Below are positions 11,518-55,565 of a DNA stretch of 64,000 nt, piece after piece. The notes under the pieces are model-generated. The model did no database searches and was not told where the DNA came from. It saw only the letters and a list, made by a program, of their open reading frames with translations. Positions within the stretch are counted from its first letter, which is position 1, and every line of letters begins with the position of its first letter. The position numbers and the translations under genes were made by a program. Source of the stretch: Flavobacteriales bacterium (GTDB lineage Bacteria > Bacteroidota > Bacteroidia > UBA10329); assembly GCA_021741155.1 (NCBI GenBank), contig JAIOYP010000003.1, positions 7,950 through 71,949 of the forward strand, read 5' to 3'.

Positions 11518-11536
11518 TTATAATTATTATTGTTGG

Positions 11537-11622: not shown

Positions 11623-11648
11623 GACACTATAAATATTTTCAAAGAACG

Positions 11649-11722
11649 AGCCGGTGGAGGGATTCGAACCCCCGACCAGCTGATTACAAATCAGCTGCTC
11701 TGGCCAACTGAGCTACACCGGC
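11649..11722 (-). tRNA. trnT: tRNA-Thr(TGT)
   Basis: GCCGGTGTAGCTCAGTTGGCCAGAGCAGCTGATTTGTAATCAGCTGGTCGGGGGTTCGAATCCCTCCACCGGCT. Confidence 0.96.
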
Positions 11723-11795
11723 TTTTACTCTACTTCCCTTTAACCATGAGGCCTGTGGCGCTTTTGACACTTAGAACCTCCTCGAAAAAGGACTG

Positions 11796-11826
11796 CAAAT
11801 GTAATACTTTAGCTTCAGTAGAACAA
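11796..11826 (-). promoter_or_regulatory. Bacteroidota sigma-70 promoter of the tRNA-tuf operon
   Basis: TACATTTG (-7 box, 11803-11796) with TTG 20 nt upstream (-33 box). Confidence 0.75.
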
Positions 11827-11847
11827 TACCTCTAGAAAAAAATTATC

Positions 11848-12486
11848 CTAAAAACCAATTTGGGCAAAAATGTTTAGAAAGCGGTTATCAACAAGCAGTA
11901 TATAGATGATTCCAAATGGACAAAACATAAGGCTTATGTAGTGAACGGTCAAGAATAAAATTCTTGACGACTTTGGAAGGAGAATAAGTAACAGTGGAAG
12001 CATAAGCAGCCTAGGAGCGAGCGGATAGACGGTTTTGATAGGAGTTGCAATAAACACACCATTTGGAGTATTTACAGCGATTGCCACAATATCATTAAAA
12101 ATTGGGGTTATCTTAATTTTGACAGTTTGCGTTCTACCAATGTACTTACAGGCAAGAGCATTCACTTCCAAAATTTGACCTTCTATGATAGCAATGTTTC
12201 CAAGGCCGATGACACTCCCTGGCCGTCCGAAAGAACTTCGTTTGACCAAAGCGGGATACGCATCCTCCACCTTGCCATGTTTCCAATCGCTTGGAAAATG
12301 AAATCCAAGCAACATTATAGCACCAATGGCGAAGGCAACGAATGCCATTATTCTACTAAACTTATAGACCACGCTTTTTTTCAACTCCTCAACGAGTTCA
12401 GTTTCATCTTTCTCTTCCTGTTGAGCCCGTTGATTTCTTCTATATTGACCTAGAGCAGCCCTTCGTCTTCTTTCGTACTCGTCCAT
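11848..12486 (-). CDS. Hypothetical membrane protein
   Basis: Charged N-terminus (MDEYERRRR...), one TM segment, soluble loop, two C-terminal TM segments; start chosen at ATG 12486. Confidence 0.7.
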   Translation of the reverse strand: MDEYERRRRAALGQYRRNQRAQQEEKDETELVEELKKSVVYKFSRIMAFVAFAIGAIMLLGFHFPSDWKHGKVEDAYPALVKRSSFGRPGSVIGLGNIAIIEGQILEVNALACKYIGRTQTVKIKITPIFNDIVAIAVNTPNGVFIATPIKTVYPLAPRLLMLPLLLILLPKSSRILFLTVHYISLMFCPFGIIYILLVDNRFLNIFAQIGF

Positions 12487-12865: not shown

Positions 12866-13762
12866 TTATGCCCTTGGATGGGCTTGTTCATAAATCTGTT
12901 TTAACTTCTCTATTGTATTGTGTGTGTAAACCTGCGTGGCTGAAAGATTGGCATGACCAAGCAACTCCTTAATGGCATTGAGGTCTGCTCCATTATTGAG
13001 CATGTGTGTAGCAAATGTGTGGCGTAATACATGCGGACTCTTTTTTCCAATGGTTGTTACCAATCGAAGGTACTTATTCACTTTTCGATAAACAAATCCG
13101 TCTGACATCATAGCACCATTATCATCGAGTAATAGGCACGTATCTATAGGAGATGTGCCAAAATGTTTCGATGTTGCTTTATAATACTCTTGGATTAGGC
13201 TTATTGTTTGAGGCGACAACGGAATGATGCGTTCTTTATTTCGTTTGCCGAGAACTTTTATTTCCTGTTTGGAAATATTAACATTTGATGCTTTTAGAGA
13301 AATCAGTTCTGCACGCCTCATTCCGGTGCAGTAAAGCAATTCGATGATGAGCTTATCTCGAACACCTTCAAAATCATGTCCAAATGCCATTCCATCGAGC
13401 AAATTCAGAATTTGAGATTGCTCTAGAAATAAAGGAAGCTTTTTCTTGGTTTTGAGCGAAACGATTTTGGCCATCGGGTTCTTCTCCAAAATTTCATTGC
13501 GTACCATATACTTATAGAAGGAGCGCAAACTGGAAATTTTACAATTAACAGAAGTGGCTTGAAGTTTCTCGTCTTCCAGAATGGAAATAATCCACGAACG
13601 AATGTCGTGATGGTCTACTTCATGAATAGAATTGATTTGTAAGTTCTCTGTAAGATGATGAAGAAACTGGTTGAGGTCTTTGGAATAAGCAAGAACAGTG
13701 TGCTGAGAAAATCGCTTTTCTTTCTTGATATAATCAATAAACCCTTCGACAATTTGGAGCAT
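12866..13762 (-). CDS. xerC: Chromosomal tyrosine recombinase (XerC-like)
   Basis: TGMRRAEL, GKRNKERIIP, HVLRHTFATH, LGHANLSATQVYT; conserved rpsU-xerC-raiA context. Confidence 0.88.
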   Translation of the reverse strand: MLQIVEGFIDYIKKEKRFSQHTVLAYSKDLNQFLHHLTENLQINSIHEVDHHDIRSWIISILEDEKLQATSVNCKISSLRSFYKYMVRNEILEKNPMAKIVSLKTKKKLPLFLEQSQILNLLDGMAFGHDFEGVRDKLIIELLYCTGMRRAELISLKASNVNISKQEIKVLGKRNKERIIPLSPQTISLIQEYYKATSKHFGTSPIDTCLLLDDNGAMMSDGFVYRKVNKYLRLVTTIGKKSPHVLRHTFATHMLNNGADLNAIKELLGHANLSATQVYTHNTIEKLKQIYEQAHPRA

Positions 13763-31334: not shown

Positions 31335-32687
31335 ATGGAACTCAATGCTCTCTCGGCCGTTTCGCCAATTGATGGGCGTTACCGAAGACACACCAATTCG
31401 CTTTCTGATTATTTCTCTGAAGCTGCGCTGATTAAGTATCGCGTACGGGTTGAAATCGAGTATTTCATACAGCTTTGCGAACTGCCTTTGCCGCAGTTGA
31501 AAGACTTCGACAAATCGCTATTTCCAACACTTAGAAAGATTTATTCGGAGATTTCTGAAGCCGATGCGCAGCGTGTAAAGGAGATTGAGAAAACCACCAA
31601 TCACGATGTGAAGGCTGTGGAATATCTCATCAAAGAGAAAATGGAAACGCTTGGGATTGGCGAGCAAATGGAGTTCGTGCATTTCGGGCTTACCAGCCAA
31701 GACATCAATAATACCGCCACTCCGTTAATGATGAAGGAGGCAACGGAGCAGGTTTACATTCCACTTTTAGATGAGTTAATTGCGAAGCTAAGGTCGTTGG
31801 CCACCGAGTGGAAGGATATTCCATTGTTAGCACGAACCCACGGACAACCAGCCTCACCAACCCGTATGGGAAAGGAAGTGTACGTTTTTGTGGAGCGATT
31901 AGAAGCCCAGAAAAAGCAGTTGCTGGCCATTCCCTTCTCTGCCAAATTCGGTGGGGCCACAGGAAATTTCAATGCGCATTTTGTCGCTTATCCTAAATTG
32001 GATTGGGTTGATTTCGGAAACAACTTTGTAAACGGAACGCTTGGGCTGACCCGCTCGCAGACCACCACGCAGATTGAACATTACGACAACATTGCCGCCT
32101 GGTGCGATGCACTACGCAGGATAAACACCATCATCCTCGACCTTGACCGTGATGTTTGGACCTACGTATCAAACGACCTTTTCAAGCAGAAAATAAAGGA
32201 AGGCGAGGTCGGTTCTTCGGCCATGCCACATAAAGTTAATCCTATTGATTTTGAAAATTCGGAAGGAAACATAGGTCTTGCCAATGCGCTTTTCGGCCAC
32301 TTGGCAGAGAAGCTGCCTGTTTCGCGTTTGCAGCGCGATTTGACCGATAGCACCGTCTTACGGAACATCGGTGTGCCGTTGGGATATACATTGATCGCGT
32401 TCCGATCTACGCTGCGCGGATTGGAGAAACTTCTTATCAATGAGGACAATATCCGCAGGGAATTGGAGAACAATTGGGTGGTGGTGGCCGAGGCCATACA
32501 AACCATCCTCAGAAGGGAAGGTTATCCGAAACCCTACGAGGCATTGAAAGCATTCAGCCGAACCAATGCCAAGTTGGATGAGAAGGCGATGCTAGCGTTT
32601 ATCGATTCGCTGAATATTTCGGAGGCTGTGAAAGTGGAGATGCGTGCGATAACGCCTTTCAATTATACGGGGCAACCCCTCCCCTGA
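31335..32687 (+). CDS. purB: Adenylosuccinate lyase
   Basis: Start MELNALSAVSPIDGRY at 31335; HFGLTSQDIN, GSSAMPHKVNPIDFEN; last codons lie inside a repeat unit. Confidence 0.98.
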   Translation: MELNALSAVSPIDGRYRRHTNSLSDYFSEAALIKYRVRVEIEYFIQLCELPLPQLKDFDKSLFPTLRKIYSEISEADAQRVKEIEKTTNHDVKAVEYLIKEKMETLGIGEQMEFVHFGLTSQDINNTATPLMMKEATEQVYIPLLDELIAKLRSLATEWKDIPLLARTHGQPASPTRMGKEVYVFVERLEAQKKQLLAIPFSAKFGGATGNFNAHFVAYPKLDWVDFGNNFVNGTLGLTRSQTTTQIEHYDNIAAWCDALRRINTIILDLDRDVWTYVSNDLFKQKIKEGEVGSSAMPHKVNPIDFENSEGNIGLANALFGHLAEKLPVSRLQRDLTDSTVLRNIGVPLGYTLIAFRSTLRGLEKLLINEDNIRRELENNWVVVAEAIQTILRREGYPKPYEALKAFSRTNAKLDEKAMLAFIDSLNISEAVKVEMRAITPFNYTGQPLP

Positions 32688-32812
32688 CCCCAACTGACCC
32701 CCTCTAACTCCCCCAAAGGGGGAGAACCGATGCCTCGTTTAAACTTTTGCTTTAATCTCCAATCAACGCACTCCGAATTCCCCTTCCCTTCGGGGAGGGG
32801 TTGGGGGAGGCC
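32676..32812. repeat. GC-rich palindromic REP-like doublet element (intergenic) plus a partial unit
   Basis: Partial unit 32676-32691, left hairpin ctccccc-aaa-gggggag (32698-32726), AT-richer spacer, inverted right hairpin 32774-32810; homologous to copies in hutU and pheT. Confidence 0.9.
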
Positions 32813-35150: not shown

Positions 35151-35768
35151 ATGAAAAGTGACTTCATTCCGATAAAACTTGTTGATATAGATGCTTGGGA
35201 AGGTAGATTTTTAACAGCCCTTAACCAGCAGGCAGCATCTTTAGGCATCACACCTCAGCAGCTTATTGATATAACGCAGAAAATCACCAACCACCGAGAA
35301 GCCTATGTGGCCGCTGAGGAGGCTAAGAAGGTTGCCAAGAGTAAAGTGGCCCACATGCAGGCGCTTAAAGTGGATACGATACGCTCCATCCGCAAGATGG
35401 TGCGCCAGATAAAGAGCAGTCCGACCTATGCGTCCGCCAATGCTCATTCTCTTGGAGTGATCGGCCCAGAAGACAGCAAGGAGCTCACCAGCCCTAAACT
35501 TAAGGCACGGTCAGTTGGTGGCAGAGCCGTTATCAGTTACCGCAAATACCGCAGCCACGGAATCTACCTATATGGCAAGCGCGGCAACGAAACTAGCCTA
35601 ACCCTGCTTGCTGTGGATACCCGCAGCCCCTATGTGGATACGCGTCCAAACCTAGACCCTAACGCCCCCGAGCAGCGCGAATATGCTGCCCGATATATGC
35701 TCAATGATGAACCCGTGGGTCAAATGGGAAACATTCATTTGCTGCTAGTGGCCCCAGGAGACCATTGA
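35151..35768 (+). CDS. Hypothetical protein (helical N-domain plus predicted Fn3-like C-domain)
   Basis: DFIP..W N-terminal motif, coiled segment, LGVIGP linker, HGIYLY.KRG.E..LLAVDTRSPYVDTRP; preceded by an AT-rich 160-bp leader. Confidence 0.75.
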   Translation: MKSDFIPIKLVDIDAWEGRFLTALNQQAASLGITPQQLIDITQKITNHREAYVAAEEAKKVAKSKVAHMQALKVDTIRSIRKMVRQIKSSPTYASANAHSLGVIGPEDSKELTSPKLKARSVGGRAVISYRKYRSHGIYLYGKRGNETSLTLLAVDTRSPYVDTRPNLDPNAPEQREYAARYMLNDEPVGQMGNIHLLLVAPGDH

Positions 35769-35818
35769 GCCAAAACCTTCAGCGACCTATTCTTGTTTAC
35801 TTTGCAAACGTGAACGAG

Positions 35819-35998
35819 ATGGACGATTATTTCGGAAAACCGAAGCTTGACCCTGATGATTTTTACTACTCCAAAGAAGGCTACATCGTCTTTACGGAAA
35901 AGTATCTGCTCAAACGGGGTTACTGCTGCAAGAATAGTTGCAAGCATTGCCCGTATGGGTTTGATAGGAAAACGGGCAGGATAAAGCCCCTCCCCTGA
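35819..35998 (+). CDS. DUF5522 family small Cys-rich protein
   Basis: DFYYSKEGYIVFTEKYLLKRGYCCKNSCKHCPYG; start re-called at ATG 35819. Confidence 0.85.
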   Translation: MDDYFGKPKLDPDDFYYSKEGYIVFTEKYLLKRGYCCKNSCKHCPYGFDRKTGRIKPLP

Positions 35999-36026
35999 CC
36001 CCTCCCCAAAGGGGCGGGGAATTCGG
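35987..36026 (+). repeat. Single REP-like unit of the GC-rich family, containing the DUF5522 stop codon
   Basis: cccctcccctgacccctccccaaaggggcggggaattcgg. Confidence 0.88.
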
Positions 36027-36059
36027 ATGGCGTAGATTTGATTATTGACCAAGTGATAA

Positions 36060-38273
36060 ATGGATTTTAAGACCGCAGTTTCAGAAGGTATTCCTAAGCA
36101 ACTTCCAGAAAGACGCCCCCTTGATGCGAGCGTGAGCCACGCCCCCAAACGCAAGGATATTCTCAGTGTCGATGACAAAAAACTAGCGCTACGCAATGCC
36201 CTGCGCTATTTTCCCAAGGAATGGCACGCCCAGCTTGTCGCAGAATTTGCCAATGAACTGAAGGAATACGGCCGCATTTACATGTATCGGTTTATGCCCG
36301 AATATGAGATGCACGCACGGCCAATCTCACACTATCCGGCCAAGTGCCAACAGGCGGCTGCCATTATGCTGATGATTCAGAATAATTTGGATCCTGCCGT
36401 GGCGCAACATCCACAAGAACTGATTACCTACGGTGGAAATGGAGCCGTTTTTCAGAATTGGGCGCAATATCGCCTCACTATGAAATACCTTTCTGAAATG
36501 ACCGAGGCGCAAACTTTGGTGATGTACAGCGGACATCCTATGGGATTGTACCCGAGCCATAAAGATGCACCGCGTGTCGTTGTAACCAACGGCATGATGA
36601 TTCCGAACTACAGCAAACCAGACGATTGGGAGAAATTCAACGCGCTAGGCGTTACCCAATACGGACAGATGACGGCTGGTTCCTATATGTACATTGGTCC
36701 GCAGGGAATTGTGCATGGAACCACCATCACCGTGCTGAATGCAGTCCGGAAACTGACCTCCCCCAACCCCTCCAATGGAGGGGAGAAGCACTCCGATTTA
36801 ACTTTATCTAAAACATCAAATCAAGGCACCCCGAATTCCCCTTCCCTTCGGGGAGGGGTCAGGGGTGGGGTTGGTCTTCCTCTTTTTGTGACCAGCGGAC
36901 TGGGCGGCATGAGCGGAGCCCAGCCAAAGGCGGGCAACATTGCAGGAGTTGTGACCATCTGTGCTGAGATAAATCCGGCAGCAGCCGAAAAACGTCATTC
37001 GCAGGGTTGGGTAGATGAGTTGATTAATGATGTGGATGTGTGTATTGATACCGCTATCGGGTTTCAAGCAAAGAGAAAAGCCCGAAGCATTGCCTTCGTT
37101 GGTAATGTGGTTGATTTGTGGGAACGCCTAGCGGAACGAAACATTCACGTTGATCTGGGTTCAGACCAAACTTCCCTACATAATCCGTGGGCTGGTGGGT
37201 ACTATCCCGTTGGTTTGACTTATGAGGAAAGCAACGCATTGATGGCGAAAGAACCAGAGGTGTTCAAGAAACGTGTACAAGAAACCCTTCGCAGACAGGT
37301 AATAGCCATCAACAAATTGGCGGCAAACGGTATGTATTTCTTCGATTATGGGAATGCATTTCTCCTAGAGGCGGGAAGAGCTGAGGCTGATATATGGACC
37401 TCCCACAACCCTTCCAAAGGAGGGGAGTTGCGCTCCGAACAAGCTTCATCTACACTTTCCAATCAAGGCACCAGTTCTCCCCCATTGGGGGAGTTAGAGG
37501 GGGCTGTTGGTGGGGCCGCTGGGGACGGTGCTTATCGCTACCCAAGCTATGTTCAAGACATAATGGGCCCCATGTGTTTCGATTACGGTTTTGGGCCATT
37601 TCGCTGGGTCTGTGCTTCTGGAAAAGAAGAAGACCTACAAGCCACCGATATCATTGCCGCCCAAGTCATAGAAGAAATGCTTTTGAGCGCGCCTGCTGAA
37701 ATTCGATCTCAACTACAAGACAACTTGCGTTGGGTTCAAGAAGCGCAAAAAAACAAGTTAGTAGTTGGGTCGCAAGCACGCATATTGTATGCAGATGCCG
37801 AGGGAAGAATCAAAATTGCAGCTGCATTTAATCAAGCAATCAAAGAAGGAAAAATTGGTCCCGTGGTTTTGGGTCGAGACCACCATGACGTATCAGGTAC
37901 AGATTCGCCCTACCGAGAAACGTCAAATATTTACGATGGCTCGCAATTTACTGCAGACATGGCAGTTCAGAATTTTGTTGGCGATGCCTTTCGTGGAGCC
38001 ACTTGGATAAGTCTTCACAACGGTGGTGGCGTTGGTTGGGGAGAAGTAGTAAACGGTGGGTTCGGAATGCTTTTGGATGGTTCTGACGATGCCGACCGCA
38101 GGCTCAGAATGATGCTTCATTGGGATGTAAACAACGGAATTTCGCGCAGAAGCTGGGCTCGAAACGAGGGGGCAATCTTTGCCGCCAAACGTGCAATGCA
38201 GCAAGAACCGAATTTGAAAATTACCATCCCCAACTTGGTTGATGATAGCCTCTTAGAAAATCTCGAAAAATAA
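36060..38273 (+). CDS. hutU: Urocanate hydratase (long Bacteroidota type) with two in-frame repeat insertions
   Basis: ELITYGGNG, YGQMTAGSYMYIGPQGIVHGT, GLGGMSGAQPKA, SDQTSLHN, FFDYGNAF, GRDHHDVSGTDSP, HNGGGVGWG. Confidence 0.97.
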   Translation: MDFKTAVSEGIPKQLPERRPLDASVSHAPKRKDILSVDDKKLALRNALRYFPKEWHAQLVAEFANELKEYGRIYMYRFMPEYEMHARPISHYPAKCQQAAAIMLMIQNNLDPAVAQHPQELITYGGNGAVFQNWAQYRLTMKYLSEMTEAQTLVMYSGHPMGLYPSHKDAPRVVVTNGMMIPNYSKPDDWEKFNALGVTQYGQMTAGSYMYIGPQGIVHGTTITVLNAVRKLTSPNPSNGGEKHSDLTLSKTSNQGTPNSPSLRGGVRGGVGLPLFVTSGLGGMSGAQPKAGNIAGVVTICAEINPAAAEKRHSQGWVDELINDVDVCIDTAIGFQAKRKARSIAFVGNVVDLWERLAERNIHVDLGSDQTSLHNPWAGGYYPVGLTYEESNALMAKEPEVFKKRVQETLRRQVIAINKLAANGMYFFDYGNAFLLEAGRAEADIWTSHNPSKGGELRSEQASSTLSNQGTSSPPLGELEGAVGGAAGDGAYRYPSYVQDIMGPMCFDYGFGPFRWVCASGKEEDLQATDIIAAQVIEEMLLSAPAEIRSQLQDNLRWVQEAQKNKLVVGSQARILYADAEGRIKIAAAFNQAIKEGKIGPVVLGRDHHDVSGTDSPYRETSNIYDGSQFTADMAVQNFVGDAFRGATWISLHNGGGVGWGEVVNGGFGMLLDGSDDADRRLRMMLHWDVNNGISRRSWARNEGAIFAAKRAMQQEPNLKITIPNLVDDSLLENLEK
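36752..36870. repeat. REP-like doublet inserted in frame in hutU (insertion 1)
   Basis: Left hairpin cccctcc-aat-ggagggg; right unit 36832-36870 identical over 39 nt to 53705-53743. Confidence 0.92.
37397..37505. repeat. REP-like doublet inserted in frame in hutU (insertion 2)
   Basis: Left unit cctcccacaacccttccaaaggagggg; right unit 37475-37503 is the reverse complement of 32698-32726 at 28/29 nt. Confidence 0.92.
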
Positions 38274-38513: not shown

Positions 38514-41500
38514 TTATTTGATCACCTTTTGAGAAGAAATCTCCCCGTTTGCAATCATTCTTACTACATAAACTCCCATAGACAGGCTAGACACATCGAC
38601 TTTTGCTAACCCGTTGGAGAAACCAACTGACCCAGAAGTCCAAACCATTCTGCCACTCATATCAAAAATCTCCAAAGCAGCCATCTCAACATTAGCTTTC
38701 GAAACCGTCAACATATCATTGTTGATGAACGCATGCATTGGATTCATTTGTACATCATACATACCCGTTACACTTGGCGTAGCAAAATGTAGGAAGAAAC
38801 GATCGTTGTAAGTAACCGCATTCGTTTGGAACACATATGAACCTTCATGTAAGTCTTGGAAAACATTCAAATGACGGTCTTCTAAGTAAATGATGTCGCT
38901 TTCCATATTGAAATTCGTATCCAGGCTTATAGTGACCATAGATTGAGTATTCGAAATATATCCTAACGGAACAATTCTATCAGGGAATAACGATCCATAA
39001 GCTTGAGTCACGTATGGAGTATTATCATCCATTAGACTGTAAAAACTATGCCCAGAGCCTAGATTAATTTTTGGAGTATCGTAAGACCAATCTGGTCCAT
39101 CTGTACCGTCCTCCAAAAATCCAATAGCCATTTGATTATATCGGCCTTCAGCATTAACTGCAGATAGCCATAACTTCTTAGCATCGCTTTGTCTAAATAG
39201 CATGTTTGTATTGCCAGCAACTCGCATTGCGTTGGTAAACTGAACACTGCCAGCTCCGTTCACTCTAACTTCAAAACCTTGAGCAGATCCAATTACTGGT
39301 CCCGGAGTGTTTCCACCGCCACCAGCAGTTTGCAACGTTGGATTCCAAACCGCAAAATCTTGCGAATCGTACGGAGTTGTTGCTGGACTATCCCATAGGT
39401 AAATTGAGTTTACAGAAAGGATTCCGCTGTTAGCTGACAAGAATGTTGCAGCGTCTATTCCACTTGGATAAGGATTACCAACCAAATTGAACGGAACTCC
39501 AGGCAACATTGGATCAGGATTGTTAAAATACTGAACCGGAATACTAACGTTACCGTTATTAACAGTACCAGTAAATGTTTCTACAGTGCTGGCAAATGCT
39601 GCATAGCCTTTACCAGGAATCATAGTAGCACCTGGTGCAACCCAACCTGGATCATGCAAATCATCAAACGGATCCGCAGTACTCAACTGTGGGTCGTAGG
39701 CATATGCCTGCCCAAAGATGTTTGTTGAAACAGTAGTTATTGGAGAACTCCAGAAATCGAAAACAGTACTTCCATTACGAGTTACGTTGTAGATACCTGT
39801 TCCTACTCGAGTACTTCCTGTGGCCTGTACCAAACTACCGCCAGAGGCAACATTTATAGTTCCATTATTTGTTAAAACACCTGTAACCGACAGAGAATGT
39901 CCACCTTGAATACTAACCGATGAACCAGTTGCAAGCGTAAGGGTTGCAATTGAAGCTGCCTCGTCAATAATTGGGAAGTTACCTCCAACTGGTGTGGTAG
40001 GAATGAACGCAACACCATTTGATGCTGGAACGGTTCCTTCACTCCAGTTACCATTGGTAGCCCAATCGTTAGCTACAGCGCTACCAGTCCATTCATTCAC
40101 ACCGCAGGTACGAGAGATTGTAAATGTTCCTGTTGTGGTGCTACCAGATAACCAATACGAGATATAAACATAATACCTTGTACCTAGAACAGTGGTAAAG
40201 GTGGCAGACTCACTTCCACCAGCATCATCAATGCAATTGACGTTAGACAGAGCACCACAAGTTCCTCTAGTAATCGACAATTCGATGTCAAATGTGGCGT
40301 CACAAGTGACCGTAGTACTGTATCCATTTCCAACAAACGTATACCAAACTCCAAATTGTCCCATGCTACACATTCCAATTGCACCAGAAACGAATGCTGG
40401 CTCAGGTCGAGACCATTCGGTAGTACCAGCCAAACCAGATGTTCCGCAAGGAAGCGAGATTGCGTTAGCGCACTCATCATTAGCCGGTGCTGGTGGCAAC
40501 GTTTTAATACAAATGTCTTGTTGCGAAAACGCCCCTGAACCTGCCCAAGTATACATTCTCAGGTAGTACGTATTTCCAGGAGTAAGACCGTATAAAATAC
40601 TTCCAGCGTTATCGTCACTACATACAATTGAAGTCATAGAAGAAGCACAAGCAGAACTAAATACCTGCCAGTAAATATCAGTGGATCCAGCAACGTATGT
40701 AAACTCTATGCTTAGTGCCGTTTCTGGGGCTACAAATGAGAACCATACATCATCATCAGGGTTGCCCGAGTTGGATGTACACGAACCCGTAGGTGTAACT
40801 CCTGAGTTTGTACCATTCAAAGTAGTTTGGTTTGAAAGTGTAGCACAAGTCTGGTTAGTAGGAATAACCGGGAATGGTGTTGCTGTGCTACAGTTGTCGT
40901 TTGCAGGCGGAACTCCCGATATAGTCCTTAGATTTCCCAATGCAGTACCAGTGGGGGTCACAACTGGAGTGGTAGTAACCGCTATGTTTCCAACTGGTGT
41001 TATCCTTGCGGTAATGGTTCGTCCAACCGTAGCCGTTCCGCTTACATCAGCAACCAAAAGATATCTTCGATTAGTACTGATTCCTGTTTGACCTGCTATA
41101 CCAAATGTCATGCTCGCAGCAAGTGCTTGCGCAGCGGTCGAAGCAAGCAAATCCGTTCCTACCTCGTACGTACCATTTGCATTCACATCTTGATAAATTC
41201 TAAAATTAGAAAGGTCTGCAGTTGTGGCTGTTCCAGTGGTTGTATAGGTTACAGAAGTCAGCGATGCTGATACGCAACCTGGAGCTAATTGAAAACCAGA
41301 GATAACCACATTGTTTGAGGACTGACCAATATTTCCTGCTGCAGGTGTTCCTGTATTACTAAGAACCAAAGCAGGGGTAGGACTAGTTACCTGAATATTG
41401 AAGGTTCCTCCTAAACCATCCCAATCCTGAACCATGACGTAATAAGTAGTTCCTGCAACTACTGTGGCAGAAGCTGTTTCGGAGGAAGTACTGAAACTAG

Positions 41501-44500
41501 TACCTGTACCAATCAATGGGGGATTAGTAGTAGTAAATGTACCTGGACACAACGTATAAATTCCTAAGTCGTAGTCGGCAGGGAAGCCATATCCATTTGT
41601 GGTAACCGTATGCACTCCACTACAGGTCGGTGTAAACGAAAACCAAACGTCATTGAGTGTACCTCCTGTCATAGGAGTTGCTCCGTTTGCTGTACCTGAA
41701 ACCGAAGGGGCATCAACAGTTAATGCTACCACACCGGCACAATCATCATTGGCAGGAGGTGGCGGTGGAACGTTTAGGCAGAATTCGAAATTCGAAACAG
41801 TTGATGTTGTACTTGAATACGTGTGAGTTCTAACCAAATACGTGTTTCCAGGAGTAAGACCTGTAACCGAACCAGACTCAGGGTCTGAACAAAGCAAACT
41901 GGTTCCTCCGCAAGCATCAAAGAATTGGAATACGCGGTCTGTACTTCCTGAAATGGTGTTAGTAACGCTGAAATTAATGGTTGTTTCACCAGCAGGCATT
42001 ACAAAGCTGAACCACACATCATCATTAGCTCCAGTACCAGCACAAGCGGCTAATGATTCTGTTGCCGAAGCTGTATTAACAGTTACTGAGGCACATGTTC
42101 CATCGGATGGAATAGTTGGGAATGCAATGGCAGCTGCACACTCATCATTTGCAGGAGCTGGCGGTGGAACGCTCAGACAGAAATCGAAATTCGAAACAAT
42201 CGATGTTGTACTTGAATAGGTGTGAGCTCTAACCCAATACGTGTTTCCAGGAGTAAGACCTGTAACCGAACCAGATTCAGGGTCTGAACAAAGCAAACTG
42301 GTTCCTCCGCAAGCATCAAAGAATTGGAATACGCGGTCTGCACTTCCTGAAATGGTGTTAGTAACGCTGAAATTGACTGTTGTTTGACCAGCAGGCATTA
42401 CAAAGCTAAACCACACATCATCATTGGCTCCAGAACCAGTACAAGCAGCTAATGATTGAGTTGCCGAAGCTGTATTAACAGTTACTGAGGCACATGTTCC
42501 ATCGGATGGAATAGTTGGGAATGCAATGGCAGCTGCACACTCATCATTTGCTGGTGGTGGTGGCGGTACACTCAAGCACAAGTCGAAACTTGTTGCAGAA
42601 GCATTGAAAAAGCTATAGGTTCTAAGAACATAGGTGTTTCCTGCAACCAATCCTGTCCACGTTCCAGATTCTGGATCGTTACAGAACAAACTTGTTCCGC
42701 CACAAGCACTGAACAATTGGAACATTCTATCAGTTGAACCAGAAATGTTTGTTGTAGAATAGTTTACGGATGTATTTCCTGCAGGCACTACAAACGTGAA
42801 CCATTGATCGTCATCTGCCGTACCCGAACAACCAGCTAAAGATTGTGTATAGCCAGTATTATTAACGGTAACTGTTGCACAGTTTCCGTTGGTCGGAATG
42901 ATTGGGAATGCGTATGCTCCTCCACAATCGTCATTATTGGTTACAAGCGCATACGGACCAGCCCAAGCACTATAGCTGCTTCCGCCACAGAATGATCTCA
43001 CGTAAACATTATAAGATGTATTTACCGTAAGGCCAGTTACGTTTGCAGTAACAACTCCAGCAGCAGTAGAACCAGAAGCAACAGCTCCTGCAATTCCAGG
43101 TGTTAAATCTGTTCTCACTTCCCACTGATAACCACCGCTTGGCGCGTTGGTTGGAGCTGTCCAATTGATGGTAGCGGTTGTAGCCAAAATGTTTGTAGAA
43201 GCAACAATGGTTGGTACTTCGCAAGCCGGTGGAGCCACACAGTTTAATTGAACTGAAAAAGGCGTGTATCCACTTGAATTACATGTTCCAGAAACATCCG
43301 AGTTAATTGCAAAGGAAATATTTCCCGTAGTGCTTGTAATCGTAGATACACCAGAGTAATCTGCCAAACCTCCGCCAGTAAGTGCTCCATAAAGAATGTT
43401 TCCTGTGGCATTAAGACCATCATAAACAACTACCTCATCGCAGCACGTTTCAACGCCTCCAGCTAAGAAGGTAAGTGTAGCGTAATCTCCTGGAGTGCTA
43501 ACCGAAAAGTTAAGCATAACCTGAAGAGAACTAGTTTGATTGTAGCAAAGACCGCTAACCACATCACCGCAAGCTGCAGGAGTAGTAAAACTATATGCGG
43601 TAGACCATGTGCTGTAGCCACTTCCGCCACAATCGCTTCTAACAAATACGTAATAAGTGGTATTGCTTGATAAGCCTGTAATTGCTGCAGATGTACCGCT
43701 TTCATCCGTTCCTGTGTTAGCTGCAGTGCTAGGGGTTACATTCGAGGTAGAAACAACATATTCGTAACCAGCACTCGGAGCAGGGCTCGGTGCTGTCCAG
43801 TTAATAGTGGCTGTTGTGCCAGTTACAGACGTTGGAGCTGTAACGGTTGGTGTAAGACAAGATGGAATGGCCTCAACCACAAAATCATCTAAATGAAAAT
43901 CAATATCTGGACTAGTGGATGCAGTAGTAGCAATGAAAGCTACCCTAACAACGCCACTGTAACCAGTGAGGTCAATCGTTTCGGTTGCACCTGTATTGCT
44001 GTATGTTGCTACACCTGTATAGGTTCTTAGCACGTTTGCCGCAGCCCAAGTACTTCCACCATCCGTAGAAATAACCACTTTAACAACATGTGTTCCCAAA
44101 GTTGCAACAGCACCTGTACCAAGATAAGTAGTAACCGCCATTCGGTAACTCACTCTGTAAAGACCTGGAGTGACACCCAAATCTATGGGTTGAGAAATAA
44201 TCCAATCGTCTGAATCAGTTCCGTAAAGATTGGTCCTTACGCCCACATTGGTACCTGTGTTGGCGAAACCTGTTGAACTCAACCATTCGCTATTGGCTGT
44301 GTTGGCACTGACGGTTCCAGAAAACAGGGTTGAAGACTCTGACCAGCAAATTGGATTTGGTGCCGAACCCGTGAACGTTGCAAACGTTTGTACCGCTGTA
44401 GGTGCTGCTTCTGCTGCACAAGGCGTTGTAAAAGTTACCGCGCTACTCCAAGAGCTAAAAACACTGCTTCCGCAATCGGATCTAACATAAATGCTATAAG

Positions 44501-45455
44501 TAGTGTTTGCCGTAAGTCCAGTTACGTTGGCAGTCAATACTCCTGCCGCTACAGAACCACTTGCTTGCAAACCCGTGGCACCGCTACCTGCCGCACCGCT
44601 CGTACGAACTTCCCACTGATATCCTCCGCTTGGCGCAGGACTAGCCGCATTCCAATTGAGCGTAGCCGAAGTTGACGTTAATGCCGTTGCCGCAGTAACC
44701 GCTGGAGCCGCACATGATGGTGGAGTCCAAGTGAATGTTAGTCCTGATGCAGGAACAGTTCCAGCGTTAGCGGAACGGAAATACATGATATGGTTATTCG
44801 CTGTTCCTTGAATACTATTTATCCAACTACCACCAGCAGCTGCAATCCTCCGGTTGTTAACATTCGTGGCAATTGCGTTGGTAGGTCCCTTCAAGCCTAC
44901 TTGCGGATACGCGGTATTGTTACCTGGAGCAATAGTTCCGCCATAAACAACTTGAATGACGTTAGTTAAGGTGTTCAACCTTATTTGGAACGAAATGATC
45001 TCACCCGCGATGCCGTAGCGTCTTACATCCTGAAATTGCACCACGAATTCGTTACCAACCAACTCATACCGTATCTCCGGTGAACCGGAAGCCGCATTGT
45101 TAAGGTCGGCTCCAAAAGCTGAAATAATGCCCCCAGTTGCATTGGTAGCAGAACTTATTGGAGTATAGTTGCCAGTTGATGTGTATGTACCAAAGGCAAT
45201 ATGTCCATTTGCATTGATTCCCAGACTAGTGTAGGCATTGCCATCGTAGGTAAATGAAGGAATGGTGATTGCCCCAGAATTACCATCGTCAAACGTTCCA
45301 GATAGATACACCGTACCCCCTGTAATTGGTGTGTAAGTACCCGCGGTTTGACTGAAGGTGTAAGTACTGGCCACCTGCGCCTTGGCCTGCCAAGCCCCGA
45401 AAACGGAAAGGAGAATAAGAAAGAGGCCTGCGAATTGAGTAGAGACTTTTTTCAT
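38514..45455 (-). CDS. Large T9SS type A sorting-domain surface protein (Fn3, CUB-like and Cys-containing NDxC repeats)
   Basis: Start re-called at MKKVSTQF (45455); signal peptide AKA-Q; three Fn3 (ANVTGLT.NT.Y..YVRS.CG); C-terminal domain LEIFDMSGRMV..SSLSMGVYVVRM..SQKVIK. Confidence 0.92.
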   Translation of the reverse strand: MKKVSTQFAGLFLILLSVFGAWQAKAQVASTYTFSQTAGTYTPITGGTVYLSGTFDDGNSGAITIPSFTYDGNAYTSLGINANGHIAFGTYTSTGNYTPISSATNATGGIISAFGADLNNAASGSPEIRYELVGNEFVVQFQDVRRYGIAGEIISFQIRLNTLTNVIQVVYGGTIAPGNNTAYPQVGLKGPTNAIATNVNNRRIAAAGGSWINSIQGTANNHIMYFRSANAGTVPASGLTFTWTPPSCAAPAVTAATALTSTSATLNWNAASPAPSGGYQWEVRTSGAAGSGATGLQASGSVAAGVLTANVTGLTANTTYSIYVRSDCGSSVFSSWSSAVTFTTPCAAEAAPTAVQTFATFTGSAPNPICWSESSTLFSGTVSANTANSEWLSSTGFANTGTNVGVRTNLYGTDSDDWIISQPIDLGVTPGLYRVSYRMAVTTYLGTGAVATLGTHVVKVVISTDGGSTWAAANVLRTYTGVATYSNTGATETIDLTGYSGVVRVAFIATTASTSPDIDFHLDDFVVEAIPSCLTPTVTAPTSVTGTTATINWTAPSPAPSAGYEYVVSTSNVTPSTAANTGTDESGTSAAITGLSSNTTYYVFVRSDCGGSGYSTWSTAYSFTTPAACGDVVSGLCYNQTSSLQVMLNFSVSTPGDYATLTFLAGGVETCCDEVVVYDGLNATGNILYGALTGGGLADYSGVSTITSTTGNISFAINSDVSGTCNSSGYTPFSVQLNCVAPPACEVPTIVASTNILATTATINWTAPTNAPSGGYQWEVRTDLTPGIAGAVASGSTAAGVVTANVTGLTVNTSYNVYVRSFCGGSSYSAWAGPYALVTNNDDCGGAYAFPIIPTNGNCATVTVNNTGYTQSLAGCSGTADDDQWFTFVVPAGNTSVNYSTTNISGSTDRMFQLFSACGGTSLFCNDPESGTWTGLVAGNTYVLRTYSFFNASATSFDLCLSVPPPPPANDECAAAIAFPTIPSDGTCASVTVNTASATQSLAACTGSGANDDVWFSFVMPAGQTTVNFSVTNTISGSADRVFQFFDACGGTSLLCSDPESGSVTGLTPGNTYWVRAHTYSSTTSIVSNFDFCLSVPPPAPANDECAAAIAFPTIPSDGTCASVTVNTASATESLAACAGTGANDDVWFSFVMPAGETTINFSVTNTISGSTDRVFQFFDACGGTSLLCSDPESGSVTGLTPGNTYLVRTHTYSSTTSTVSNFEFCLNVPPPPPANDDCAGVVALTVDAPSVSGTANGATPMTGGTLNDVWFSFTPTCSGVHTVTTNGYGFPADYDLGIYTLCPGTFTTTNPPLIGTGTSFSTSSETASATVVAGTTYYVMVQDWDGLGGTFNIQVTSPTPALVLSNTGTPAAGNIGQSSNNVVISGFQLAPGCVSASLTSVTYTTTGTATTADLSNFRIYQDVNANGTYEVGTDLLASTAAQALAASMTFGIAGQTGISTNRRYLLVADVSGTATVGRTITARITPVGNIAVTTTPVVTPTGTALGNLRTISGVPPANDNCSTATPFPVIPTNQTCATLSNQTTLNGTNSGVTPTGSCTSNSGNPDDDVWFSFVAPETALSIEFTYVAGSTDIYWQVFSSACASSMTSIVCSDDNAGSILYGLTPGNTYYLRMYTWAGSGAFSQQDICIKTLPPAPANDECANAISLPCGTSGLAGTTEWSRPEPAFVSGAIGMCSMGQFGVWYTFVGNGYSTTVTCDATFDIELSITRGTCGALSNVNCIDDAGGSESATFTTVLGTRYYVYISYWLSGSTTTGTFTISRTCGVNEWTGSAVANDWATNGNWSEGTVPASNGVAFIPTTPVGGNFPIIDEAASIATLTLATGSSVSIQGGHSLSVTGVLTNNGTINVASGGSLVQATGSTRVGTGIYNVTRNGSTVFDFWSSPITTVSTNIFGQAYAYDPQLSTADPFDDLHDPGWVAPGATMIPGKGYAAFASTVETFTGTVNNGNVSIPVQYFNNPDPMLPGVPFNLVGNPYPSGIDAATFLSANSGILSVNSIYLWDSPATTPYDSQDFAVWNPTLQTAGGGGNTPGPVIGSAQGFEVRVNGAGSVQFTNAMRVAGNTNMLFRQSDAKKLWLSAVNAEGRYNQMAIGFLEDGTDGPDWSYDTPKINLGSGHSFYSLMDDNTPYVTQAYGSLFPDRIVPLGYISNTQSMVTISLDTNFNMESDIIYLEDRHLNVFQDLHEGSYVFQTNAVTYNDRFFLHFATPSVTGMYDVQMNPMHAFINNDMLTVSKANVEMAALEIFDMSGRMVWTSGSVGFSNGLAKVDVSSLSMGVYVVRMIANGEISSQKVIK
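41761..42558. repeat. 399-bp tandem duplication (133-aa domain x2) within the T9SS protein
   Basis: Anchors 41761/42160 and 42091/42490 are both 399 bp apart; about 25 differences counted by eye. Confidence 0.92.
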
Positions 45456-45840
45456 GAAGTTCGAATTAAAATAAAGGGATAGTTGCGAAAAATAATGGGT
45501 ATTCGGCTGTTTGTTTAAGCGTATTGGCAATCTGCAGTACGTGATTTACGCAAATTGGACTGTGAAATAACGAAATTTTATCATTGATGTAACATGCCTA
45601 TTGCATTTATTTTTCTGGCAGACCACTAAATCTATCCTTTCAGCGAACATTTTTGTTCGACAAAACTGATTTTAGGCTTATTCGGTATTCGGTAACCTGC
45701 TATGAATTTTAATGTGATTTTACCCATCCAAGTCTTCGAGGCTTATCTATTTGGTTTTGCAATGCGTTATTGGCACTTAGAAAACCTCAATACCAGAGCG
45801 CGAGTACCAAGCGAAATAGGAATCAATTACTTTCACATCC

Positions 45841-52660: not shown

Positions 52661-52980
52661 GTGTTGAACAATATGCGGTGGTACTGATCAACCTTGACCC
52701 AACAATAGGAAGTGAGATCAAAAAGACCCGTCCATGCTTGATCATCTCTCCAATCGAAATGAACCAGCACCTACGAACCATAGTTATTGCACCCTTGACC
52801 ACCACCATGCGCAAATATCCTTCGCGCGTCAAAGTGCATTTCTCGGATAAGGAAGGTATGATCGCATTGGACCAAATTCGCACCATTGACAAGCAGCGAA
52901 TCATCAAAACTTTAGGCGGCATCAAACCAAGTGAAATAAAAAATGTGAAAGAGGTATTGATGGAAACGTATGTACGCTAA
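52648..52980 (+). CDS. PemK/MazF-family mRNA interferase toxin
   Basis: NLDPTIGSEIKKTRPCLIISP, DQIRTIDKQR; start 52648 (ATG) or 52657 (TTG). Confidence 0.92.
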   Translation: MGRLSVEQYAVVLINLDPTIGSEIKKTRPCLIISPIEMNQHLRTIVIAPLTTTMRKYPSRVKVHFSDKEGMIALDQIRTIDKQRIIKTLGGIKPSEIKNVKEVLMETYVR

Positions 52981-55565
52981 CCCCTCAAAACCGCGCCAAC
53001 TTCCTGTTCAAATCGCTGTTGGAGTCGGTTCATGGTTTTTTCGATAGTCTTATCGTTAAGGGTGGCTTTCTCATCCTGAAGAATGAAACTCATGGCGTAG
53101 GAGCGCTTGCCTTCTGGTACGCCTTTTCCTTCGTACACATCAAACAAATCAACCTCTTTGAGAATGTTTCTTTCTGTTTGAAAAGCAAGTTGCTCTAGCT
53201 GGGCGTATTTCACGGTCTTGTCTACGAACAGAGCTAAATCTCTTCGAACCGAAGGATACTTGGCCAACTCGGTTACTTCAATCGAATTTAGTGCGGAACG
53301 TTTTAGGACCAAGTCCCAATCGAAATCGGCATAGAACACCTCTTGGTCGATATCAAAAGCCTCAAGAACATCTGCATTGACCAGACCGAAATTGGCGAGG
53401 AGCTTTCCGTCCTTGGTTCGGAATTCCATGCCATAAGCATAGGCTTTTGTGCCCGTCACGTCATGCAACTGTGCTTCGATTCCAAGTCTGTTTAGAATGG
53501 ATTTTACCGCGCCATGAATATGATGGAAAGTGGCATTTCCTGCCGCAGCATTCCAACGTTCCTTCTGCCACCTGCCAGTGATGAACAGTGCCAGAGAACG
53601 GTGTTCGCTGTAAGGCCAAACAACCCCATCGGCCCCCGCCCCCTCCAAAGGAGGGGAGGTGCGCTCCGATTTAACATTACCAGAATCGTCCGACCGAGTC
53701 ACCGCGAATTCCCCTTCCCTTCGGGGAGGGGTCAGGGGTGGGGCTTGCTTCCCTTCTTTGGAGGGGTTGGGGGAGGTTTCATACAGATTTCCGAATTCGT
53801 AGAATTTGCAGTTCAGATTCTGATGTCGGATGTTACGCGAAACGCTTTCCAAACCTCCAAAAAGCAATGACTGACGCATGGCGTTGAGGTCGGTACTGAG
53901 CGGATTCAGAATCTCCACCTTAGCATTGGCCTGTTCTGGAAAAAGCTTGTCCATGTAACTCGCTTTCGTCAGCGAATTGTTCATGATCTCGTTGAAGCCT
54001 TGGGCCGTCAACGCATCCGAAACCAAGTTGCGCAACTGCTCTGGGCTTTTCTTATTGGAAGCAATCAACGGTACGCGTAATTGTCCGCTGCCCAAGATGC
54101 GGTCGTAGCCATAAACGCGGAGTACCTCTTCAATCACATCAGCTTCGCGGGTCACATCATTCTTGAAGGACGGCACGGAGAGTTTCAGCCCGTCTTCCCT
54201 CTTCTTCTCCACATAAATACCCAGATCATCGAGAATGGAAAGCACGGTTTCCTTGGGAATGTCCTGCCCGATGAGTCGGTTGATATTGGCAAACTTCACC
54301 TCCACCTTTTGGTGCGGAATCGGATTTGGATAGATGTCGGTGATGACAGACAGTTTTCCGCCAGCAACTTCCTGAATGAGAAGGGCGGCACGTTTAGCTG
54401 CATAAACAACCGTTTCGGGGTCGATTCCTCGCTCAAACCGGAAAGAAGCATCGGTGCTCAATCCATGACGTTTGGCCGTTTTTCGGATGGAAACAGGATT
54501 AAAGTAGGCGCTTTCCAAAAACACATTCTTGGTTTTTTCGGTCACACCTGAGTTCAATCCACCAAACACACCTGCAATGCACATACCATCGCTTGCATTG
54601 CAAATCATCAAATCATCTTGATTCAAATCTCGTTCAACTTCATCCAACGTGGTAAATTTCTCTCCTGTCTTGGCTGTGCGTACAACTACTTTATGATCTT
54701 TAATCTTATCGGCATCAAACGCATGCAGCGGCTGACCCAGTTCGTGCAATACGAAATTGGTGACATCAACCACGTTATTAATAGGCCGAGCGCCAATGGC
54801 TTTCAGTCGATTTTGCAACCAAGCTGGCGATGGTTTTACTTCAATTCCTTGAATGTAAAGCCCAACGTAACGCGGACAAGCCTCCAAATCCTGCACATCG
54901 ATGGCGATTGGGTTCTCCTTCAATTCGGCCGAATAGCCCATCACATCAGGCCATTCCAATTTCAGGTTTTCGTGACCACCTTTTATCTCACGGATAACAG
55001 CTCTCAGGTCGCGCGCCACGCCAATATGGCTCATGGCATCGGCTCGGTTTGGCGTGAGACCTATCTCGAGCACAAAATCATTTTCAATCTTGAAATACTC
55101 GGAAGCCGGTGTCCCAACCTTTACATCGGCAGGAAGAACCATGATACCATCGTGGCCCTGGCCTAGGCCAATCTCATCTTCGGCACAAATCATCCCTTCA
55201 GATACTTGCCCTCTAATTTTCGATTTTTTAATCTCAAACGGCTCTCCTTCTGATGGATACAGCTTTGCTCCGACCACAGCTACAACTACCTTCTGCCCTG
55301 CTGCAACATTTGGCGCGCCACAAACGATATCCAACGGTTCACCTGTTCCAATATTCACTTTGGTGCAGTTAAGACGATCGGCATCGGGGTGTTTTTCCTT
55401 GCTCAAAACTTCGCCAATAACCAGTCCTTCTAAACCGCCTTCCACAGACGAAAAAGGGATGACTTTTTCTACTTCCAAACCGCTTCCCGTTAGGAGCGCG
55501 GCCGCTTCGTTCACGTCAAGGTTGATAGGTAAATATTGGCGAAGCCAGTTGTAGGAAATGTCCAT
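52977..55565 (-). CDS. pheT: Phenylalanine--tRNA ligase beta subunit with an in-frame repeat insertion
   Basis: HPDADRL, VCGAPNV, GLTPNRADA, GQPLHAFD, RFERGID, PSVRRDLA FDX-ACB domain; 862 aa. Confidence 0.98.
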   Translation of the reverse strand: MDISYNWLRQYLPINLDVNEAAALLTGSGLEVEKVIPFSSVEGGLEGLVIGEVLSKEKHPDADRLNCTKVNIGTGEPLDIVCGAPNVAAGQKVVVAVVGAKLYPSEGEPFEIKKSKIRGQVSEGMICAEDEIGLGQGHDGIMVLPADVKVGTPASEYFKIENDFVLEIGLTPNRADAMSHIGVARDLRAVIREIKGGHENLKLEWPDVMGYSAELKENPIAIDVQDLEACPRYVGLYIQGIEVKPSPAWLQNRLKAIGARPINNVVDVTNFVLHELGQPLHAFDADKIKDHKVVVRTAKTGEKFTTLDEVERDLNQDDLMICNASDGMCIAGVFGGLNSGVTEKTKNVFLESAYFNPVSIRKTAKRHGLSTDASFRFERGIDPETVVYAAKRAALLIQEVAGGKLSVITDIYPNPIPHQKVEVKFANINRLIGQDIPKETVLSILDDLGIYVEKKREDGLKLSVPSFKNDVTREADVIEEVLRVYGYDRILGSGQLRVPLIASNKKSPEQLRNLVSDALTAQGFNEIMNNSLTKASYMDKLFPEQANAKVEILNPLSTDLNAMRQSLLFGGLESVSRNIRHQNLNCKFYEFGNLYETSPNPSKEGKQAPPLTPPRREGEFAVTRSDDSGNVKSERTSPPLEGAGADGVVWPYSEHRSLALFITGRWQKERWNAAAGNATFHHIHGAVKSILNRLGIEAQLHDVTGTKAYAYGMEFRTKDGKLLANFGLVNADVLEAFDIDQEVFYADFDWDLVLKRSALNSIEVTELAKYPSVRRDLALFVDKTVKYAQLEQLAFQTERNILKEVDLFDVYEGKGVPEGKRSYAMSFILQDEKATLNDKTIEKTMNRLQQRFEQEVGAVLRG
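53631..53778. repeat. Three REP-like units inserted in frame in pheT
   Basis: Units at 53631-53658 (+), 53705-53743 (-) and 53751-53776 (-); spacer gcgctccgatttaac matches 36788-36802. Confidence 0.93.

Follow-up and report, generated by a model that had tools for sequence, protein, structure and literature searches.

In-frame palindromic repeats have been described in genes of Rickettsia as RPE (Ogata et al. 2000, as summarised in PMC10969869 and PMC3733652), and intragenic REPs of the GTAG- and CGTC-tagged superfamilies encode 20–30 amino acids (aa) as dimers and 43–82 aa as clusters (Di Nocera et al. 2013, PMC3733652). A 2024 review of prokaryotic MITEs presents RPEs as an extreme case and mentions neither Bacteroidota nor Flavobacteria. 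The sequence analysed here is a stretch of 64,000 nucleotides (64 kb) from contig JAIOYP010000003.1 of the Flavobacteriales assembly GCA_021741155.1, referred to below as the window, in which hutU, the gene for urocanate hydratase, contains two in-frame copies of a dispersed repeat. The first of these, insertion 1, lies just ahead of the NAD-binding Rossmann strand and is probably a translated copy of a small non-autonomous palindromic repeat of the REP/REPIN/MITE-like kind, tolerated in a disordered surface loop. The gene and the parts of insertion 1 are as follows.

36060-38273, plus strand: hutU (urocanate hydratase, 737 aa), with two in-frame repeat insertions; identified by Pfam and 6UEK matches
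36753-36872, plus strand: insertion 1, a 120-nt doublet equal to 40 codons, LTSPNPSNGGEKHSDLTLSKTSNQGTPNSPSLRGGVRGGV, missing from the empty sites in loci L002 and L003
36756-36785, plus strand: left unit of insertion 1, C-tract tail ACCTCCCCCAA and hairpin CCCCTCC-AAT-GGAGGGG (36767-36783), read as TSPNPSNGGE; from hairpin scan and DNA fold
36786-36837, plus strand: spacer of the doublet, richer in A+T, semi-conserved (GCRCTCCGA ... ATCAAGGCAC) in an alignment of eight doublets
36838-36872, plus strand: right unit of insertion 1, hairpin CCCCTTCCC-TTC-GGGGAGGGG (36838-36858) and G-tract tail TCAGGGGTGGGGTT
36873-36902, plus strand: native linker remnant GLP, then the first Rossmann-like beta-strand and the start of the Gly-rich motif (LFVTSGL), conserved in 120 of 120 homologues; strand 275-280 in the structure model

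The peptide quoted in the original prediction, VLNAVRK-LTSPNPSNGGEKHSDLTLSKTSNQGTPNSPSLRGGVRGGVG-LPLFVTSGLGG, is encoded exactly as given by the open reading frame (ORF) at 36060-38273, and the predicted two-unit element was recovered in frame in hutU as two units spanning 120 nt in a stop-free frame, with empty sites in relatives. Borders were set by codon-aware alignment with two empty orthologous loci, L002 (encoding protein P0005) and L003 (encoding P0002). The empty site reads RK-IGKTKNEKGLP-LFV (an 11-residue loop) or RK-IGAENRT(A/P)-LFV (8 residues), and the window site reads RK-(40 residues)-GLP-LFV; judged from the alignment, insertion 1 appears to have replaced ∼8 codons of an 11-residue linker, of which GLP was retained. 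The doublet consists of two inverted hairpin-plus-C/G-tract units flanking a spacer of ∼54 nt, the right unit being of the left-unit type inverted, and its two hairpins are perfect and local (7 and 9 bp; whole-element fold z = −2.4). The left end of insertion 1 is complementary at 17 of 17 positions to the right end of a further copy at 32.7 kb of the window, so that the doublet has inverted termini, as in a REPIN or MITE. Insertion 1 has a single stop-free reading frame out of six, the one used by hutU; Pro, Gly, Ser, Thr, and Asn make up 65% of the residues of the resulting peptide. No Rfam match was obtained across 30000-56000 of the window, even at E values up to 1, and the 41-aa insert peptide shared no words with the protein collections and gave no match among 1.84 billion representatives, for which its short length and biased composition are the likely cause.

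Insertion 1 is one of five related copies in the window. The remaining four, and the G-quadruplex-type motifs found by a motif scan of the 64 kb, are as follows.

32676-32810, plus strand: copy between convergent purB-like (adenylosuccinate lyase family) and glucosaminidase genes; from hairpins, blastn, and gene-end comparison
35984-36061, minus strand: partial copy, right unit and part of the spacer, inverted, stopping at the hutU ATG (36060)
∼37395-37515 (approximate), plus strand: insertion 2 in hutU, a second doublet, with 73% identity to insertion 1 over 122 nt
53623-53790, plus strand: composite copy (doublet and one extra inverted unit) in frame in pheT (52977-55565, minus strand)
36850-36870, 53723-53743, 32676-32714, and 35987-36007: G-quadruplex-type motifs

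The basic unit of these copies is ∼30 nt long, a C-arm/loop/G-arm hairpin with a C- or G-tract tail, and two inverted units with their ∼54-nt spacer form a doublet of 115–130 nt. The right-unit 28-mer CCGAATTCCCCTTCCCTTCGGGGAGGGG occurs four times in the window at no more than three mismatches, compared to zero occurrences in 100 shuffles, and the strong C-first hairpins of the 64 kb all fall within the four full doublets (8 of 8, against 0–1 in 20 shuffles). G-quadruplex-type motifs (four runs of at least three G, or C on the opposite strand) are likewise found only inside element copies, in four of the five, and in insertion 1 the motif is formed by the four G-runs at 36850-36870. Two of the four G-runs constitute the 3′ hairpin arm, so hairpin and quadruplex would compete. 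The observation behind the original prediction is thus confirmed as real, placed to within one or two bases and well beyond chance, and its interpretation of insertion 1 is supported.

The proposed collinearity of insertion 1 with the 32.7-kb copy was borne out by blastn (36751-36868 against 32692-32810; 76% identity over 121 nt, E 5e-20). The aactgacc start ascribed to both is present in each, at 36751-36758 and 32692-32699, one base off the predicted starts. Both copies had also been described as ending with the same right unit, which holds for the right hairpin (21 of 21 nt shared) but not for the G-tails, which differ, as do the left units. The 32.7-kb copy had been taken as non-coding; it does lie outside hutU and between genes, but its C-tail provides the last three codons and the TGA of the upstream purB-like gene. 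That gene ends ...QPLP-TGA (stop at 32685-32687), while the lyase of relatives ends ...TGV-stop, and the lyase and glucosaminidase genes, which overlap by 4 nt in three of four relatives, are separated in the window by an element-filled gap of 126 nt. A small DUF5522-like ORF upstream of hutU (35765-35998) similarly receives its ...KPLP-TGA end from the partial copy, its orthologues ending ...EKK-stop, and both stops lie in the element tail CCCCTCCCCTGA (32676-32687 and 35987-35998). An ortholog of the partial copy is present in locus L001 at 9921-10003 (83% identity). Situated in inverted orientation at the hutU start codon, the partial copy could affect transcription or translation initiation of hutU.

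The 53.6-kb copy, which matches insertion 1 at E 3e-28 (blastn), adds ∼47 residues to the beta chain of PheRS, the product of the essential gene pheT, in which all five PheRS beta-chain domains are present. The empty pheT site in L001 reads GLSGKEK. In L017 and L169 this site also holds a copy, oriented oppositely with respect to pheT and composed of different units. The idea that all copies share one chromosomal orientation was discarded, as pheT copies differ in orientation among genomes.

As RPE are summarised in the two articles cited above, the window element resembles them in being a dispersed repeat of ∼100–150 bp with stem-loop potential that recurs at unlinked loci, both outside genes and, in frame, within unrelated housekeeping genes, with orthologues that lack the insert; RPE are translated as an extra peptide segment placed compatibly with the fold, as is probably the window element, and in both one reading frame is preferred. 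The RPE host is an obligate intracellular alphaproteobacterium, whereas the window host is a free-living freshwater member of the Flavobacteriales, and, unlike RPE, the window element is modular (30-nt hairpin plus C/G-tract units that also occur singly) and its peptide is Pro/Gly/Ser-rich and predicted to be disordered. Given the differences in phylum and composition, we treat the element as an analogue of RPE rather than as a member of RPE-1 to RPE-10, and no sequence relationship is expected. By this analogy it appears to be, in another phylum and with a unit architecture of its own, what RPE are in Rickettsia, and not a new kind of system or principle.

Like REPs (PMC3733652), the element is composed of palindromic units of 20–40 nt, often in inverted pairs, some of them intragenic and some at ORF ends. 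In contrast to REPs, which have a conserved GTAG or CGTC tetranucleotide at one unit end (PMC3733652), it has no such tag, its units ending ACCTCCCCCAA... and ...GGGGTGGGG(C/T)TG in all aligned copies; REPs are mostly extragenic, whereas every repeat copy in the window touches coding sequence; and no flanked tyrosine transposase (REPtron) was found among the annotated window ORFs and the examined loci. The closest architectural likeness is to REPINs (Bertels and Rainey 2011, PMC3116915), which also comprise two inverted REP-like units and a spacer, are non-autonomous, measure ∼100–120 nt, lack a target-site duplication, and commonly occur as singlet units; however, REPINs lie almost entirely outside genes and are linked to a single-copy RAYT gene that has the same REP on its flanks, none such being found here. 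Inverted terminal units are shared with MITEs, although a classical MITE would be accompanied by a target-site duplication. A full-text literature search with six diagnostic 14–16-mers of the element gave only unrelated human-genetics matches, and membership in the RPE, REP, REPIN, or MITE families is not established by these likenesses. Cyanobacterial mini-MITEs are recognisable, as is the window element, by comparison with orthologues lacking them, but they differ from it in sequence, size, and phylum and are not built from hairpin plus G-tract units. In heterocyst-forming cyanobacteria these very small, mobile dispersed repeats reportedly constitute in-frame additions in conserved protein genes, an observation ascribed to Elhai and colleagues in 2008.

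The identity of the host protein is secure. Pfam places Urocanase_N at residues 84-210 of HutU, Urocanase (Rossmann-like) at 275-444, and Urocanase_C at 507-710 (E 2e-58 to 9e-86), in the correct order and with bit scores of 196 (PF17391), 237 (PF01175), and 287 (PF17392) against curated cut-offs of ∼23; the Rossmann-like match starts only at profile position 29, which is residue 275. The best solved relative is the Trypanosoma cruzi urocanase 6UEK (E 3.5e-244), which aligns in three blocks (5-233, 275-449, and 491-732) that bypass both ∼40-residue inserts, its linker at the insertion 1 position being residues 240-247. Most close HutU relatives are ∼660 aa long, compared to 737 aa in the window; the insert-free P0005 has 665 aa, and its deficit of 72 aa equals 32 + 40. 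The Gly-rich motif LFVTSGLGGMSGAQPKAG pairs with VVLTSGLGGMSGAQGKAG of 6UEK. After the first Rossmann strand this motif is invariant across 120 homologues, all of whose invariant columns are kept in the window protein; it continues as GGMSGAQ to ∼36923, and strand and motif together read LFVTSGLGGMSGAQ. The predicted location of insertion 1 just before the NAD-binding strand was upheld, with a modelled helix (214-233) preceding the insert and the modelled strand 275-280 and the invariant GLGGMSGAQ following it. Both hutU inserts lie at junctions between Pfam domains, insertion 2 being situated between the Rossmann-like and C-terminal domains, where the loop is 46 aa long as compared to 6 aa in 93 of 120 relatives. 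The right unit of insertion 2 differs from that of insertion 1 (CTCCCCC-ATT-GGGGGAG and TTAGAGGGGG). Outside insertion 1, hutU and its L001 ortholog share 88.6% amino-acid identity and 53.7% third-position identity, a clear sign in the sequence comparison that the rest of the gene is under purifying selection; urocanase activity has probably been kept despite the inserts.

Loop lengths were surveyed in the 120 closest HutU cluster representatives (68–90% identical), with an expansion defined as more than 14 residues at site 1 or more than 12 at site 2. The site 1 loop has 8 residues in 59 of the 120 proteins and 11 in 34, in agreement with the short variable loop that the original prediction gave for urocanases at this position; repeat-free homologues with a loop as long as the 40-codon insert, which would speak against an insertion, were not encountered in the alignment, their loops being of 8 or 11 residues. 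Expanded loops are present in 24 proteins at site 1, 19 at site 2, and 12 at both, and besides these two loops insertions in the alignment occur only at the N-terminus. DNA of three further HutU variants revealed inserts in which units of these kinds are combined differently and read in other frames, such as two left-type units with a different right unit in L169 and a 66-residue loop in L170. Empty sites are available for the in-frame copies of hutU (L002, L003, and L172) and pheT (L001).

An AF2 model built from the 120-sequence alignment (mean pLDDT 68.9, pTM 0.65; a 24-sequence alignment gave only 46.5) predicts coil at pLDDT 24–29 for residues 234-271 and no secondary structure at pLDDT 23–33 for residues 449-489, the latter corresponding to insertion 2. 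The insertion 1 segment is thus most likely, as modelled, a disordered surface loop at a domain junction.

The repeat is not confined to the window. Further copies were found in L001, L003, L017, L023, L037, L169, L170, and L171, and the eight aligned doublets, which share common units and a semi-conserved spacer, come from several Flavobacteriales assemblies. When metagenome contigs were scanned for the left unit (CCTCCCCCAACCCCTCCNNNGGAGGGG), at least 120 stretches were recovered, mostly single units rather than doublets. Among the matches listed, 31 of 120 non-redundant metagenomic copies are intragenic (in an open frame 200 or more codons long, at least 40 codons from either end), and 18 of these 31 use the SPNPSxGGE frame, as does hutU. 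The left unit is stop-free in every frame, the other sense frames giving PPPTPPKEG or LPQPLRRRG, and the simplest explanation of the frame bias would be that selection favors the least harmful peptide. In IMG/VR, 13 viral or proviral contigs (L173-L185) contain the left unit, and no contig of that collection matches the right-unit pattern. The contigs with the left unit are possible vehicles for spread between hosts.

The species-representative genomes were scanned with a right-unit pattern anchored on GAATTC, which is too specific for a census of the Flavobacteriales, and few members of that order were recovered (hits L004-L048); the genome from which the window comes gave no hit and is apparently absent from these representatives. 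Look-alike units of the form GAATTCCCCTCCCC-loop-GGGGAGGGG-TYAGGGGWGGGG were found in Alphaproteobacteria (Hyphomicrobium and others), Ruminococcus (Firmicutes), Omnitrophota, and candidate-phyla-radiation genomes, mostly one or two per locus (e.g., L007, L008, L010, L019, and L042), with a similarity that exceeds the searched pattern; either homology or convergence may account for them. L169 (GCA_016124845.1; hutU 169-2415, pheT 5482-8046) carries a subfamily of its own, with a 5-nt hairpin loop and a CAAAATGACC leader, in both hutU loops and in the pheT loop, while the same three sites of the window carry the window-type subfamily. Either the active subfamily of each lineage refinds the same loops or copy-to-copy conversion overwrites old inserts. 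On within-genome gene conversion as the sole cause the comparisons are divided: paralogous copies in the window are only 73–82% alike, yet the two hutU inserts of L169 are 84% alike and have lineage-specific features in common.

Insertion 1 is present at identical junctions in only one other of the 120 proteins, P0001 (L001, GCA_021739695.1). The two copies differ at 5 of 120 nt (95.8% identity; 95% at third positions), and all five differences are nonsynonymous; outside the element the two genes are 79.4% identical, and the 53.7% identity at third positions gives a binomial P of ∼1e-8 for so few third-position changes in the insert. Nucleotide-level purifying selection on insertion 1 was considered as the cause and withdrawn, given that the genes are not sisters, that the flank switches clade, and that the upstream 187 nt are themselves 90% identical. 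In the HutU tree, the window protein and P0001 are not sisters, and the nearest relatives of both bearers lack the insert: those of P0001 (P0016, P0020, P0027, and others; 91–92.5% identical) have the 8-residue loop, and that of the window protein, P0005 (90.9%), has the 11-residue loop. Over the whole gene, L001 hutU is 85.2% identical to L172 (encoding P0016) of its own clade and 79.6% to the window, whereas in the block spanning insertion 1 the order is reversed, with 88% identity to the window and 73% to L172. Identity between window and L001 rises from 74.9% in 36060-36565 to 90.4% in 36566-36752 and 95.8% in the element, and is ∼80% downstream; clade-informative sites of L001 switch to the window clade between ∼36566 and 37007. 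Compared with L172, L171, and L003, L001 hutU (10001-12235) is a mosaic, of its own clade at the 5′ end, of the window clade around insertion 1, and alternating beyond, which suggests frequent recombination among lake Flavobacteriales of the same sample. Both strains are present in contigs of a lake-water run, at ∼13x and ∼60–97x.

These patterns are better explained by a recombined hutU patch between lineages of the same lake sample, which would be the simplest account of the near-identical inserts: one insertion in the clade of the window, followed by homologous recombination that brought a short hutU patch with insertion 1 into the P0001 lineage, the right-hand crossover probably lying at or near the element end. 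The element with GLP shows 6 differences in 129 nt, compared to 43 in 313 nt in both flanks together (Fisher P 0.004), a small remaining excess of conservation that comes mainly from the diverged downstream flank.

As to how the doublet came to lie in hutU, a DNA-level, transposition-like insertion catalysed in trans would have placed it in a variable linker, with ∼8 codons replaced. Insertion 1 has then probably persisted as tolerated selfish DNA rather than as a functional module, being a multiple of three in length, stop-free in the frame used, rich in Pro, Gly, Ser, Thr, and Asn, and apparently leaving the enzyme intact; insert-bearing alleles would subsequently move between co-sampled lineages by homologous recombination of a short hutU patch. 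Several results weigh against this account. No transposase was found among the annotated ORFs of the window, part of which is annotated; a XerC/D-like recombinase lies at 12866-13762. No direct repeat of the kind left by a target-site duplication flanks the eight aligned copies, and in contigs of four public runs no clean excision or empty-site joint was seen, only cross-links between copies, so that mobility is deduced from distribution only. Y1_Tnp genes (PF01797, E 1e-26) were detected by tblastn with a Y1 probe in metagenome loci L051 and L066, which had been found through the left unit, but their flanks carry a different hairpin (CCGTxxxx-TAAA), CCGTCCCA-TAAA-TGGGACGG or CCGTTGGC-TAAA-GCCAACGG, then CAAAGGAT. 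That divergent lineages carry subfamilies of their own in the same two hutU loops and one pheT loop, and that the reading frame is strongly biased, is not obviously expected of pure tolerated-junk neutrality. Finally, the AF2 model is only moderate, with some core segments low as well, so that the low pLDDT of the inserts is weak evidence for disorder.

The two IS200-like Y1_Tnp proteins (L051 1521-1964 and L066 43-477) are nearly identical and 144–147 aa long, and the hairpin associated with them lies ∼200 nt upstream in L051 and ∼20 nt downstream in L066. With their own hairpin, these genes possibly represent a separate REP/RAYT system. A Y1 transposase as mover of the units is unsupported, as the Y1_Tnp flanks bear the other hairpin.

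An alternative to tolerance is co-option, in which the host would be served by the peptide loops or by the mRNA segments at the two domain boundaries, which are able to form a hairpin or G-quadruplex; translation pausing for stepwise domain folding, a change in oligomerisation or regulation, and control of mRNA stability are roles that such a sequence may have. The domain-boundary position of both hutU inserts, the restriction of G-quadruplex motifs in the 64 kb to the elements, the one frame preferred by 18 of the 31 listed intragenic copies, the filling of the same loops in many lineages, and the slightly greater conservation of the element compared to its recombined flank (95.8% versus 90.4%) are consistent with co-option. 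However, most close relatives, the nearest included, have no insert, the sequence and unit composition of inserts vary freely among lineages, and all 5 differences between the orthologous copies alter the amino acid. The apparent nucleotide conservation is largely attributable to recent recombination, and selection against harmful frames (polyproline, Arg-rich) can yield a frame bias without function. We consider co-option unlikely.

A much less probable explanation is that the 120 nt are missing from the mature product, through intron-like removal, programmed ribosome bypass, or excision of a mini-intein. The element can form stable hairpins, and GC-rich palindromic mobile "byp" elements are skipped by ribosomes in mitochondria of the yeast Magnusiomyces, which would favor bypass. 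However, the inserts of at least 31 HutU and three PheT variants are all in frame and stop-free in the frame used, which removal or bypass would not need, the Rfam search described above returned nothing, and 40 residues without intein motifs are far too short for a mini-intein. Just as improbably, similarity to the other loci would be incidental, from local slippage, low-complexity growth, or a metagenome assembly chimera at the repeat, as the simple composition (C and G runs), the breaking of public-run contigs at the right unit, and some assembly joints that connect different copies might suggest, but the ∼120-nt matches to the 32.7-kb and 53.6-kb copies span a non-repetitive A+T-rich spacer (E 5e-20 and 3e-28), the same insert and junctions occur in the independent NCBI assembly of L001, a contig of depth 59.5 in run X1 carries the L001-type variant, which is seen in X3 too, and the total X1 depth over the insert (72–77) leaves ∼12.7, which is how deeply the window strain is covered in X1 on an error-free contig of its own.

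Downstream of hutU, a gene at 38514-45530 (minus strand) encodes a protein of 2338 aa, in which fibronectin type III, galactose-binding-like, and purple-acid-phosphatase N-terminal domains are combined with a type IX secretion sorting tail. It separates hutU from ORFs of 186 and 349 aa, which adjoin or overlap hutU downstream in L001 and L002, so the 2338-aa gene looks like an insertion into a conserved gene order.

A broader reading, which we regard as tentative and on balance doubtful, is that the 30-nt unit (C-arm, loop, G-arm, and two further G-runs, able to form a hairpin or G-quadruplex) represents an undescribed and very widespread REP-like mobile family. Near-identical right units in Alphaproteobacteria, Firmicutes, candidate-phyla-radiation bacteria, and Bacteroidota, a unit that is stop-free in six frames, and the refilling, in lake Flavobacteriales, of the same few inter-domain loops of housekeeping enzymes by lineage-specific subfamilies are noted for this reading. 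If true, it would mean that insertion is targeted or that copies continue to convert one another, and the nucleic-acid structure might have a role at the host level.

With insertion 1 taken as a probable translated and tolerated copy of a palindromic repeat, in-frame palindromic repeats, usually presented as a curiosity of Rickettsia, are here found in free-living freshwater Flavobacteriales, in which both essential pheT and metabolic hutU are affected. Such repeats also matter for annotation, in that they lengthen proteins, supply stop codons, and break metagenome assemblies. Dozens of close hutU orthologues with zero, one, two, or different inserts at exactly two loops form a clean natural series, with which loop tolerance at a domain junction, neutrality of the peptide, and spread by transposition versus recombination can be tested. 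The main appeal of the system lies in this comparative series at two loops of one enzyme and in the question of why the same loops recur.

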